This document shows, in pieces, positions 15,147 through 22,902 of a DNA stretch of 64,000 nucleotides. The translations under genes and the position numbers were made by a program. The notes below the pieces were generated by a model, which made no database searches, had not been told where the DNA came from, and saw only the letters and a program-made list of their open reading frames with translations. This stretch comes from Candidatus Omnitrophota bacterium (lineage in GTDB: Bacteria > Omnitrophota > Gorgyraeia > B26-G9): assembly GCA_043805415.1 (NCBI GenBank), contig JAZDHZ010000027.1, positions 2,089 to 66,088 of the forward strand, in the 5' to 3' direction. Each line of letters begins with the position of its first letter. The first letter of the stretch is position 1.

Positions 15147-17261
15147 TTATCCTTTTTTCTTTAAAAGCAATTTAATCCTGGCTATTAGCCTAACTCCGTC
15201 AAAAGGTTTCGCGATATAATCATCAGCTCCGGCATCAAGGCCTTGGACTTCACTATTGGCATCGCCTTTTGCCGTTAACATCACAATAGGAATAGACGCT
15301 GTTTCTAATTTAGAACGAATTTGTTTTGTCGCTTCAAACCCGTCCATTATCGGCATCATTACATCCATTACAATAAGATCCGGCTGTTTGCGTATTGCCT
15401 GTTCAACAGCTTCAACTCCATTGATCGCCTCGATCGTATCAAATCCAGCGGTTTTAAGCCGCATGGCCACAAGTTTGCGGATATTGTCTTCATCATCAGT
15501 AATAAGCACCAAGGGCTTTTCTCTTTTTGGTAGTTGTTCCTGCGCCTCTTCCGGCACATCTAAAACAGCTACCCGGGATACTTCCTCAAGTGTGCTAATG
15601 CCTAAAGCAACTTTCTGCATGCCTGATTCAGCCAAGCTTTTCATGCCGCAGTTTTGAGCTTCCTGGGCAAGCAATGAAGCTGCTGCTTTTTGGCCAATAA
15701 GATCCTGGACTTTTTTATTTAAATGGAAAATCTCAAAAATTGCCGTGCGTCCGTAATATCCGCTGAATCCGCACTCTTTACAGCCTTTGCCTTTATAAAA
15801 TTTCGCGATTTTAAGTTTGCTGATATAATGCTCGAATTTAGCGCGTTCCTGCGCATCCGGGATATATTCGTATTTACAATGCGGGCAAATAACCCTTATT
15901 AATCTCTGGGCAATGATTAAAATAATTGAAGATGCCACAAGATAAGCTTCCAGCCCGATATCATAAAGACGGCTGATTGAAGATACGGCATCATTGGTGT
16001 GCAATGTGGAAAATACCAGATGTCCGGTCAAAGATGCTTTGAAAGCAATTTCTGCTGTTTCACTGTCACGAATCTCTCCGACAAGAATAACATCAGGGTC
16101 CTGCCTTAAGACACTGCGCAGACTGGTGGAAAAAGTTACGTCTCTTTTCGGGTTAATCTGGATCTGATTGACTCCATCCATTAAATATTCAATCGGATCT
16201 TCAATTGTAACGATATTTTTAGTTTCATTTTTCACAAAACCTAAAGCAGCATACAGGGTTGAAGTCTTACCTGAACCTGTAGGCCCTGTTACCAAAATCA
16301 TTCCCTGCGGACGGGTAAATAGATTTTGCATTATACTTATTTCATCAGGAGTAAAGCCAATCTTACTTAGTTCTATTTTTGATTTTTGAGGATCAAGCAC
16401 CCTTAAGACAACTTTTTCTCCATAATAAGTGGGAATTATCGAAACCCGCAAGTCAATCTTTCTGTTTTGAAAAACAATTTCTGCCCGCCCGTCTTGGGGT
16501 TTTTTATTTTCAGCAATATTCAGATTGGAAATTATTTTTATTCGGGCAACAAATTGCGGATACATTTCCGTTGGTATTTTTAGAATATTTTTTAAATATC
16601 CGTCGATCCGGTAGCGGACTTCTATAAAATTTTCCTGAGGTTCTACGTGAATATCTGTCGCCCGATTGCGGATGGCATCACTTAATATCACTTTAACCAA
16701 ACGCACCACTGGAGAACGCTCTCCCTGCAGCATCTCAGCCTGCACAGAGTCTTTCGCGCTGCCGGCTTCGGTAACTTCTACTGAAGAATCTTCGGCAATA
16801 TTTTTTAGCAAATCATACAAGGAATCATCAACATGATAATATTTTTCAATACATATATCAATATCGCTTTTACAGGCTAAAAAAGGCTGGATGGGTTTAT
16901 TGACTAATAATTTAAGATCATCAATCGCGATAATATCCTGGGGATTACTCATTGCCAAAACCACGCTATCCGCTTCATTGCGCAAGGGAAATACGCCATA
17001 ACGCTTGGCAATATCATAAGAAATTAAGTGTATCACATTCGCGTCAATATTTTCTCCATTCAAGTCGACAATCGGCATTTGAAAAACACTGGACAGTAAT
17101 TCCATCATATCTTTTTCACTCACAAAGCCCATTTCCACAATAACATCCTGAATCGGCAGTTTTGCTCCCTGCTGTCTTTGCCGGGCTTCCTGCAATTGTT
17201 CATTATTGATCAGACCTTTTTCCACTAAAACCGCGGTTAATGATTTGCGCACAGACATCAC
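15147..17261 (-). CDS. GspE/PilB-type secretion/pilus ATPase with N-terminal GspII/MshEN-like domain and a fused C-terminal response-regulator receiver domain
   Basis: Walker A GPTGSGKTST. Tetracysteine CPHC...CKEC. N-terminal SLTAVLVEKGLINNEQLQEARQRQQ resembles the MshEN c-di-GMP-binding motif. C-terminal LVLITDDEDN...DVMMPIMDG...K receiver domain with phospho-acceptor Asp. 704 aa. Confidence 0.8.
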   Translation of the reverse strand: MMSVRKSLTAVLVEKGLINNEQLQEARQRQQGAKLPIQDVIVEMGFVSEKDMMELLSSVFQMPIVDLNGENIDANVIHLISYDIAKRYGVFPLRNEADSVVLAMSNPQDIIAIDDLKLLVNKPIQPFLACKSDIDICIEKYYHVDDSLYDLLKNIAEDSSVEVTEAGSAKDSVQAEMLQGERSPVVRLVKVILSDAIRNRATDIHVEPQENFIEVRYRIDGYLKNILKIPTEMYPQFVARIKIISNLNIAENKKPQDGRAEIVFQNRKIDLRVSIIPTYYGEKVVLRVLDPQKSKIELSKIGFTPDEISIMQNLFTRPQGMILVTGPTGSGKTSTLYAALGFVKNETKNIVTIEDPIEYLMDGVNQIQINPKRDVTFSTSLRSVLRQDPDVILVGEIRDSETAEIAFKASLTGHLVFSTLHTNDAVSSISRLYDIGLEAYLVASSIILIIAQRLIRVICPHCKYEYIPDAQERAKFEHYISKLKIAKFYKGKGCKECGFSGYYGRTAIFEIFHLNKKVQDLIGQKAAASLLAQEAQNCGMKSLAESGMQKVALGISTLEEVSRVAVLDVPEEAQEQLPKREKPLVLITDDEDNIRKLVAMRLKTAGFDTIEAINGVEAVEQAIRKQPDLIVMDVMMPIMDGFEATKQIRSKLETASIPIVMLTAKGDANSEVQGLDAGADDYIAKPFDGVRLIARIKLLLKKKG

Positions 17262-22902: not shown

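Follow-up and report, generated by a model that had tools for sequence, protein, structure and literature searches.

In a 64,000-nucleotide (nt) stretch of a Candidatus Omnitrophota genome (assembly GCA_043805415.1, contig JAZDHZ010000027.1, positions 2,089 to 66,088; called the window below, with its first letter as position 1), a gene for a PilB-type assembly ATPase that carries its own receiver (REC) domain at the C-terminus adjoins a dense set of two-component signalling genes: a membrane hybrid histidine kinase (HK1), a CheY-like single-domain receiver (CheY), a soluble hybrid kinase (HK2), and a tandem-receiver protein (REC-REC). On balance, we favour the view that these components constitute a branched two-component network that contains no histidine-phosphotransfer (HPt) domain and ends post-translationally, without a transcription factor, on the receiver of the ATPase (hereafter ATPase-REC). 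As far as can be judged from sequence, Omnitrophota probably switch a pilus motor on and off by direct phosphorylation, without a gene-regulatory step. The building blocks of this arrangement are ordinary; what is unusual is the fusion of a receiver to the motor, its phylum-wide conservation, and an apparent swap of cyclic di-GMP (c-di-GMP) for phosphorylation.

A PilB-Type ATPase with a Fused Receiver

The ATPase is composed of an MshEN-like N-terminal domain (residues 1-146), a T2SSE core (181-563), an acidic linker (564-584), and the REC domain (585-697), for which Pfam assigns 73.8 bits (MshEN, T2SSE_N), 442 bits (T2SSE, PF00437), and 95.4 bits (Response_reg), respectively. The Walker, Asp-box, His-box, and tetracysteine motifs of the core are intact: Walker A reads GPTGSGKT at residues 326-333, and the zinc motif is made up of CPHC at 459 and CKEC at 494. 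The top relatives in the PDB are extension motors of type IVa pili (T4aP), namely PilF from Thermus and PilB from Geobacter and Myxococcus, which match residues 6-568 with 447-466 bits. The same MshEN-T2SSE-REC architecture is common to more than 100 database clusters (the best ~105 matches, at 50-93% identity), nearly all of them labelled Omnitrophota. In an alignment of 36 of these relatives (48-89% identity), the Walker A, Asp-box, Walker B, and His-box residues as well as the four zinc-binding cysteines are invariant or nearly so. The receiver is equally constrained: D589 is found in 35 of the 36 sequences, and D590, D633, T663, Y682, and K685 in all of them. The segment connecting core and receiver varies in length (25-58 residues in the extracted segment) and in sequence, which fits a flexible tether of the REC domain.

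Other metagenomic lineages also contain T2SSE-REC fusions that are more distant (34-38% identity), at least seven among the matches listed. A scan of genome contigs returned one true orthologous locus, L001, next to generic PilB proteins and unrelated receivers; the other matches of a metagenome scan were, among those listed, mostly ordinary PilB loci. A sister ATPase (P0107; L172, 8001-10025), 53% identical over the core, carries a C-terminal PilZ domain instead of REC, and no two-component genes lie beside it, neither kinase nor receiver. A secretin and PilO are encoded ~5 kb from this PilZ-fused ATPase.

A Conserved Signalling Neighbourhood

Six of the seven REC domains and both kinases of the window are packed into 7.8 kb. 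We compared 12 ATPase-REC loci (the window and L001, L081, L082, L084, L085, L086, L167, L168, L169, L170, and L171), and in every one the gene directly upstream of the ATPase-REC gene contains only receiver domains: two in tandem in the window, L001, and L081, and one in eight loci, where the protein measures ~120-130 residues; in L171 the product is a REC protein of 255 residues. Within two genes of ATPase-REC, one or more histidine kinases are encoded, again at all 12 loci (48-89% identity). The outer flanking genes are wholly different from locus to locus (glycine cleavage, an A/V-type ATPase operon, glycogen metabolism, tRNA synthetase, sugar-nucleotide genes), so that the association of receiver, kinase, and ATPase-REC is not inherited bulk synteny. 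Both the concentration of receivers and kinases within the window and the recurrence at 12 of 12 loci place the arrangement beyond chance. The preliminary description of this DNA had proposed that the signalling genes feed the pilus ATPase, a view that is well supported by the canonical receiver borne by the ATPase itself and by the receiver gene and kinases adjoining its gene at each locus across Omnitrophota and neighbouring lineages.

The neighbouring kinases of L084, L086, L167, L168, L170, and L171 are classical non-hybrid enzymes, in which Pfam detects neither REC nor HPt, and their sensors are of the dCache, CHASE, or multi-PAS type. Consequently, the simplest conserved unit consists of a sensor kinase, a free receiver, and ATPase-REC, for which a one-step transfer from His to Asp is sufficient. 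The single receivers upstream of the ATPase form a related group with 30-60% mutual identity. Regulators of the sigma-54 type are encoded a few genes away in two loci (L082 and L169). In L084 and L085 (1600-12109), the pair of receiver and ATPase-REC directly follows an A/V-type ATPase operon, an adjacency that recalls the unusual rotary ATPases co-located with T4aP genes in Omnitrophota (PMC10066038).

Loss of c-di-GMP-Contact Residues

The c-di-GMP-binding MshEN motif comprises two 24-residue stretches of the form RLGxxLLxxGLLxxxxLxxxLxxQ, spaced by 5 residues (PMC5013675). In the window ATPase, the MshEN domain has retained this spacing along with the hydrophobic positions, but other residues stand at R1 and G3 of each motif and at Q24 of motif 2, namely S7 and T9 in motif 1 and P36, Q38, and V59 in motif 2. 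Among the 36 aligned family members, neither Arg nor Gly ranks with the four most frequent residues at position 1 or 3 of motif 1, and motif 2 has Pro at position 1 (33 of 36), Gln or His at position 3, and Val or Ile at position 24. The failure of XpsE to bind the ligand has been ascribed to substitutions such as G11V, R38G, G40L, and Q61V, which concern partly the same motif positions (PMC5013675). From the family-wide replacement of key residues together with this precedent, we infer that the ATPase-REC family does not use MshEN-type c-di-GMP binding. It thus seems that phosphorylation has assumed the part in regulation that falls to c-di-GMP in MshE-type ATPases.

A GGDEF-homologous domain resides in HK2 (18467-18874, minus strand; Pfam E-values of 1e-9 to 6e-11, the latter on the isolated domain). 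The preliminary description rightly listed HK2 as a PAS hybrid kinase and overlooked this domain. Its motif position reads LKNKRQ, the sequence in place of the active-site motif being PIILKNKRQVVLL, and it has neither GG(D/E)EF nor an RxxD I-site upstream; the domain is predicted to be catalytically dead. Three single-domain PilZ proteins are encoded within 4 kb elsewhere in the window (60030-60398, 62261-62650, and 63374-63805, minus strand), which indicates that the organism uses c-di-GMP signalling despite the degenerate MshEN motif and the HK2 GGDEF domain.

Kinases and Receivers of the Cluster

All six receivers of the cluster possess the acidic pair, the phospho-acceptor Asp (Table 1), the Thr/Ser, and the Lys (D12/D13, D57, T87, and K109 of CheY) as well as an aromatic switch residue, and the H-, N-, G1-, F-, and G2-boxes are all intact in HK1 (H480) and HK2 (H137). 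The stop codon of the REC-REC gene overlaps the start of the ATPase gene by 4 nt, the corresponding overlap in L081 being 8 nt. The CheY gene follows HK1 at a distance of 18 nt, and the receiver of the window that is nearest to CheY in sequence is that of HK1 itself (39%, the most similar receiver pair of the window). Similarity and spacing fit a cognate pair, and CheY is probably the partner of HK1.

Where five signalling proteins had been described in 17258-22902, all named open reading frames (ORFs) and domains are real, and the interval itself holds four genes, with ATPase-REC lying just outside it. The further statements that no DNA-binding output domain and no CheA or methyl-accepting chemotaxis protein (MCP) are present agree with our Pfam scans, which took in every window ORF of at least 110 residues: the former is true of the cluster, the latter of the cluster and of all window ORFs scanned, among which CheW, MCPsignal, and CheA-specific domains are likewise absent.

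Table 1. Position and properties of the cluster genes and of adjoining features in the window.
Feature	Position	Strand	Length	Phospho-acceptor	Remarks
HK1, membrane hybrid histidine kinase	20443-22902	minus	819 aa	D749
HK1 extracytoplasmic sensor	22309-22797	minus			candidate c-type-heme site CMLCH, codons 167-171
CheY-like single-domain REC	20050-20424	minus	124 aa	D55	Pfam Response_reg 93.8 bits
HK2, soluble hybrid kinase	18095-19951	minus	618 aa	D550
Tandem-receiver protein REC-REC	17258-18079	minus	273 aa	D51 and D197	Pfam: two Response_reg stretches, 165 bits
PilB/GspE-type hexameric assembly ATPase with C-terminal REC	15147-17261	minus	704 aa	D633
Single-transmembrane protein downstream of ATPase	14594-15142	minus	182 aa		no Pfam or NCBIfam match
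Pilin-like protein	14099-14584	minus	161 aa		prepilin-type N-terminus (N_methyl)
Peptidase_Mx-like and Ddl-like ATP-grasp genes	12053-14094	minus			mutual overlap 4 nt
Divergent intergenic region upstream of HK1	22903-23407	minus	505 nt

HK2 is organized as a Cys-rich PAS domain, HisKA (H137), HATPase, the degenerate GGDEF domain, and REC, and the hydrophobicity of the protein reveals no transmembrane segment. The two closest readable relatives of the window locus, L001 and L081 (89% and 71% ATPase identity), have neither HK1 nor CheY; their gene order is His_Phos, HK2 orthologue, REC-REC, ATPase-REC, homologue of the 182-residue protein, pilin-like protein, Peptidase_Mx, ATP-grasp, SpoU. HK1 and CheY are thus a lineage-specific add-on and not part of the conserved core. 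Of the signalling set that had been taken to feed the ATPase as a whole, HK2 and REC-REC are accordingly tied to it as a core, and the pair of HK1 and CheY stands outside. The HK2 orthologues of L001 and L081 measure 731-736 residues and contain two PAS domains, with the same architecture in L081. Since window HK2 aligns, with 82% identity, only to residues 124-731 of the L001 orthologue, the first PAS domain has been lost, and this loss coincided with the arrival of HK1 and CheY. The remaining PAS domain (19586-19921) bears a Cys/His cluster consisting of C55, C65, C69-P-H, and C99, and the first PAS of the L001 orthologue, the one lost in the window, has a similar C-x3-C; the HK2 PAS domain may be a metal, Fe-S, or thiol redox sensor.

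In HK1, a transmembrane helix (residues 7-35), the extracytoplasmic sensor, a second transmembrane helix (199-231), HAMP, a coiled coil, PAS, HisKA (H480), HATPase, and REC succeed each other, and the two hydrophobic segments enclose a domain of ~165 residues with the motif C167-M-L-C-H171. The isolated sensor matches PF21563 (Mcp40H-20_sensor) with 19.4 bits, below the gathering threshold of 27, and a Tll0287-like family likewise sub-threshold, in both cases at the CxxCH. An exhaustive HMMER search with the sensor retrieved 450 homologues, where an earlier word-indexed search had found none, and CxxCH stands at the equivalent position in 141 of the best 150 of these 450. In an alignment of 50 sensor sequences (18% mean identity), C167 and H171 are the only invariant residues, and C170, M63, N163, L178, and G179 are at least 90% conserved; PF21563 is matched by 46 of the 50 (best E-value 7.8e-11), and the C-terminal modules of these homologues are kinases or MCP signalling domains. 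An AlphaFold2 model of the sensor (predicted local distance difference test, pLDDT, 90.3) displays a PAS/Cache-like domain on a long N-terminal helix, for which Foldseek returns the WalK ectodomain, GSU0935 (3b42, E-value 5.6e-7), and GSU0582 (3b47). The latter two are periplasmic sensor domains of Geobacter chemotaxis proteins and bind c-type heme. With them, HK1 shares a PAS/Cache-like fold between two transmembrane helices, a conserved CxxCH, a following HAMP domain, and, in its family, a conserved Met as a possible distal ligand; it differs in that its sensor is coupled to a hybrid histidine kinase and not to an MCP, and in that it falls below the PF21563 threshold. The preliminary description had called HK1 a heme-motif kinase, which is borne out at the level of the family by sequence and fold: most probably, the periplasmic PAS-like domain binds a c-type heme and signals the redox state or a gas ligand. 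One kinase of L082 is homologous to HK1 over the sensor and HAMP region, CxxCH included, a second L082 kinase matches PF21563 above threshold, and HK1-like kinases recur in richer clusters.

Pilin-Like Neighbours of the ATPase

Directly downstream of ATPase-REC, two genes are kept as a pair in L001, L081, and the distant L168 (ATPase identity 52%), and this conservation suggests that the ATPase has pilin-like clients of its own. The second of them codes for the pilin-like protein, whose N-terminus matches Pfam N_methyl (PF07963; 25.5 bits, cut-off 21.2) and TIGR02532 (22.4, cut-off 16.3), with a weak ComGC match in addition. Its processing motif reads KA|FTFVE, in which Ala replaces the usual Gly at position -1 and Glu5 is present, and the protein is 38% identical to its L168 equivalent (E-value 4e-26). 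It is presumably a substrate of the ATPase. The protein ends in an Ala/Lys-rich low-complexity tail (residues ~117-161) with the terminal sequence AEKKARLKAEKAAAQAAAKAAKAAEAAAKAAKKKKK, which is absent from the shorter orthologues of L001 (119 residues), L081 (130), and L168 (139); in view of this tail and the weak ComGC match, the pilin might bind polyanions or DNA.

The 182-residue protein has a charged N-terminus, one transmembrane segment (47-72), and four invariant cysteines, and is 32% identical to the L168 equivalent (E-value 5e-34); a prepilin signal is absent from it. Its sequence is 100% identical to an NCBI entry (V1747_04975) from a Candidatus Omnitrophota MAG; a look-up of the exact ATPase sequence gave no match, probably owing to a differing start-codon call. 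Its AlphaFold2 model reaches a pLDDT of 74 overall and of 80-93 in the C-terminal half, for which all top Foldseek matches are pilins or pseudopilins (EpsG, PilA1, PilE) with weak E-values of at least 0.036. The C-terminal domain probably has a pilin-like fold, and the protein may be a membrane-anchored pilin-like protein without prepilin signal.

Beyond the pilin-like gene follow the Peptidase_Mx-like gene, the Ddl-like ATP-grasp gene, and then a SpoU methyltransferase. In L001 and L081, too, the Peptidase_Mx-like and ATP-grasp genes stay together immediately behind the pilin gene; their products could be a peptide-modifying pair.

Direct Transfer, Relay, or Coincidence

A multi-step His-Asp-His-Asp phosphorelay requires an HPt module, and hybrid kinases normally feed one. 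Several observations weigh against an HPt-free network that converges on the ATPase. HK1 and HK2 are both of the hybrid type, each ending in a canonical REC; L169 has an HPt gene (101 residues, 12133-12438) directly after ATPase-REC, the only one among the 12 loci, in the company of REC-HK-REC and REC-HK kinases and a sigma-54 regulator. Kinases and receivers are paired by inference from gene order alone, and the upstream receivers of the other loci are slightly closer to window CheY (34-42%) than to the halves of REC-REC (21-36%), so that they have no clear one-to-one match to a window receiver. Tight spacing is weak operon evidence because the window is almost wholly co-directional and densely packed, and an internal promoter could reside in the AT-rich 98 nt that separate CheY from HK2. 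The ATPase, with 608.7 bits for PilB (TIGR02538, cut-off 675.65) and 566.1 bits for GspE (TIGR02533, cut-off 630.25), remains under both equivalog cut-offs and is PilB-like without being assignable to either. Finally, Pfam detects no PilC/GspF (T2SSF), PilM/N/O, secretin, or prepilin peptidase in the scanned window ORFs, and none of the 12 loci has a platform, prepilin peptidase, secretin, or PilMNO gene within ~7-10 kb; the platform and the outer-membrane parts must be encoded elsewhere. The earlier label of a pilus ATPase is reasonable as regards the best matches to PilB and PilF and the two pilin-like genes downstream, and is qualified by the cut-offs and by the missing platform gene.

The hybrid kinases and the L169 gene make a true relay the main rival: from the kinases' own receivers, the phosphoryl group would travel to an HPt protein whose gene lies beyond the window, and from there to the receiver of the ATPase and the free receivers. 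The window is, after all, only 64 kb of a contig of at least 137 kb, and HK1 and HK2 have intact receivers. We nevertheless regard this course as unlikely. The HMM scan for HPt domains (PF01627) that the preliminary description had suggested gave no hit in the window ORFs of at least 110 residues, and when the L169 HPt was compared by phmmer with all 361 stop-to-stop segments of the window that measure at least 50 residues, the best E-value was 1.1 and none lay below 1. Two ORFs of 112 residues (window 55543-55881; L084 13722-14060) were considered as cryptic HPt proteins and rejected, as neither resembles the L169 HPt or the other; BLASTP did not confirm a marginal phmmer match between the window ORF and the ATPase. 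Moreover, an HPt-free system with the same parts list is known in RedCDEF (PMC2755868). With 11 of 12 loci devoid of an HPt gene and six distant loci pairing ATPase-REC with non-hybrid kinases, a relay is disfavoured as the general logic, and the multi-step phosphorelay of the preliminary description is not supported. Alternatively, the signalling genes might be neighbours and not partners of the ATPase, the kinases and free receivers acting on other targets, be it by contacts between proteins or by way of regulators encoded elsewhere, and the receiver of the ATPase being served by another kinase or working independently of phosphorylation. Adjacency is cheap in a genome so compact and co-directional, single-domain receivers often have several targets, sensor types vary from locus to locus, and HK1 and CheY are a recent insertion without a conserved link to the ATPase. 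That a receiver directly upstream and a kinase within two genes persist at 12 of 12 loci despite wholly different flanks, that the phospho-acceptor pocket of the ATPase receiver is invariant, and that the PilZ-fused sister ATPase has no two-component neighbours makes mere proximity distinctly unlikely.

ATPase-REC could also be a signalling component, for example a phosphate sink or a nucleotide-state sensor by which another process is regulated, as exopolysaccharide is by PilB of Myxococcus xanthus, instead of a dedicated filament motor. Its scores below the equivalog cut-offs and the platform gene that is never adjacent at 12 loci agree with this idea, and PilB is reported to be active as a signalling protein (PMC5544727). 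The catalytic motifs and the zinc tetracysteine are, however, all invariant, and a pair of pilin-like genes accompanies the ATPase in four loci (52-89% identity), for which reasons we hold this role to be improbable. Least credible of all is a c-di-GMP route, in which the GGDEF domain of HK2 would produce the messenger and the MshEN domain of the ATPase would bind it. Both homologous domains exist, and the three PilZ proteins show that c-di-GMP is in use, but HK2 lacks the active-site motif and the I-site, and across the family both MshEN motifs have other residues in place of RLG...Q, partly at positions that are also changed in the non-binding XpsE; we rejected the route on these motif grounds and accord it next to no weight.

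Remaining Genes and Promoter Signals of the Window

The remaining genes of the window are mostly of the housekeeping and energy type (glycine cleavage, lipoate ligase, HydE/F/G-type maturases, NiFe hydrogenase, phosphofructokinase, polyamine). Outside the cluster, the scanned ORFs include no further kinase and one further receiver (132 residues, 55886-56284, minus strand), and their sole DNA-binding regulator is a protein with a LuxR-type helix-turn-helix (7196-8119) and no recognizable REC. The orphan receiver is followed by the 112-residue ORF, which has no family match (together 55543-56284, minus strand). On the minus strand at 31781-35856 and 39148-43554, two radical-SAM genes (one with a BATS domain, as fits HydE/HydG-type maturases) and a HydF GTPase lie near the large and small subunits of a NiFe hydrogenase, which are accompanied by Fe-S/FAD subunits and a HycI protease. 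These genes provide the context of a hydrogen-based, redox-sensitive lifestyle on which the heme sensor could report.

In the divergent region upstream of HK1, the best sigma-70-like match is TTGACT-18-TATAAT (23193-23164), and the ribosome-binding site AAAGGAG precedes the HK1 start. Promoter and terminator matches in the scan are no more numerous than in shuffled sequence, and this promoter candidate is only suggestive.

Comparison with Known Systems

The preliminary description had likened the cluster to Pil-Chp control, which is apt as an analogy, as PilB is controlled by CheY-like proteins in both the Pil-Chp and the Tax1 system. In Tax1 of Synechocystis (PixJ/PixL/PixG/PixH), only phosphorylated PixG binds PilB1, PixH is an antagonist, and the receiver of the kinase itself exerts a modulating influence (PMC11181946); in Pil-Chp of Pseudomonas (ChpA/PilG/PilH), PilG and PilH have comparable roles (PMC11656802). 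The likeness lies in phosphorylated receivers that act on PilB post-translationally, in the competition of several receivers for one kinase, with one as antagonist or sink, and in a kinase with its own C-terminal receiver. The window cluster differs from both in that it has no CheA, CheW, or MCP, its kinases being of the HisKA type, and in that receiver and ATPase form one covalent chain, where those systems rely on binding in trans.

The RedCDEF system of Myxococcus xanthus has neither HPt nor output domain and routes phosphate among receivers and back to a HisKA domain (PMC2755868). It resembles the window cluster in the parts list only: both comprise a membrane kinase, a second kinase or kinase-like protein, a dual receiver, and a single-domain receiver, and both do without an output domain and an HPt. 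RedE is incapable of autophosphorylation, while in HK2 the ATP-binding boxes are complete; furthermore, both window kinases are hybrid, and Red controls development without a link to an ATPase. With MshE and PA14_29490, the ATPase has in common an MshEN-like N-domain joined to a T2SSE core, that is, a signalling input built into the motor polypeptide (PMC5013675); it differs in that its family has lost the c-di-GMP-contact residues and takes its input through a C-terminal REC, or PilZ in the sister clade. DrdR of Xanthomonas campestris is, like the window REC-REC, a tandem-receiver protein that has no classical output, and it is reported to promote pilus-dependent motility (PMC13535131); it differs in acting through FleQ on flagellar genes.

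A review of PilB treats adaptor proteins, c-di-GMP, and chemosensory inputs, and no receiver-fused motor (PMC11656802); a survey of Omnitrophota reports near-universal T4aP and does not mention two-component control (PMC10066038); and the study of MshEN notes on REC only that the two domains can be associated (PMC5013675). No description of a receiver-fused PilB or GspE was found in the literature searched, the coverage of which is incomplete. The proteins of the cluster are already present in public databases under generic names.

Proposed Mechanism and Implications

For the branched network that we favour, we envisage the following course of events. HK2, being soluble, part of the conserved core, and equipped with a Cys-rich PAS domain, would autophosphorylate on H137, and D633 of the ATPase, REC-REC, or both would receive the phosphoryl group from it in a direct transfer. 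With D633 on the tethered receiver phosphorylated, the hexamer would change in activity or in the way it docks to a platform encoded elsewhere, and this change would gate the polymerization of the co-encoded pilin-like proteins. The extra receivers (REC-REC, CheY, and those of the kinases) would compete for the phosphoryl group or act as connectors, tuning gain and timing in the manner of PilH and PixH. HK1 and CheY would represent a second input added in the window lineage, with HK1 phosphorylating receivers directly.

Beyond the window, we tentatively propose that Omnitrophota and some neighbouring lineages possess a "response-regulator motor": a PilB-type ATPase that would be gated directly, in its activity or its docking, by aspartate phosphorylation of its fused receiver, an input which would have replaced the ancestral c-di-GMP control through MshEN, and that would respond to a cue within seconds. 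We consider this generalization a serious possibility on which we would not insist. The ATPase-REC family with its more than 100 clusters offers a natural comparison series, in which the C-terminal domain is REC, PilZ, or missing and the gene clusters come with or without HPt, and the proteins of the cluster can be expressed and assayed without cultivation of the organism.

Known control of PilB motors relies on separate adaptor proteins or on c-di-GMP; a motor that bears the receiver itself would amount to direct, phosphorylation-gated pilus assembly. Type IV pili are thought to be central to the attachment of Omnitrophota to host cells or to predation on them (PMC10066038). If the proposal is true, the response-regulator motor would couple environmental, redox, or host cues to the deployment of attachment or uptake filaments without transcription, and it would do so in bacteria that are ultra-small and probably host-dependent. 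The sister clade would use a fused PilZ in place of REC. HK1, as a probable heme-based periplasmic sensor kinase, also extends the range of inputs that may control pili, and in the genome of the window the cue would enter through this sensor.

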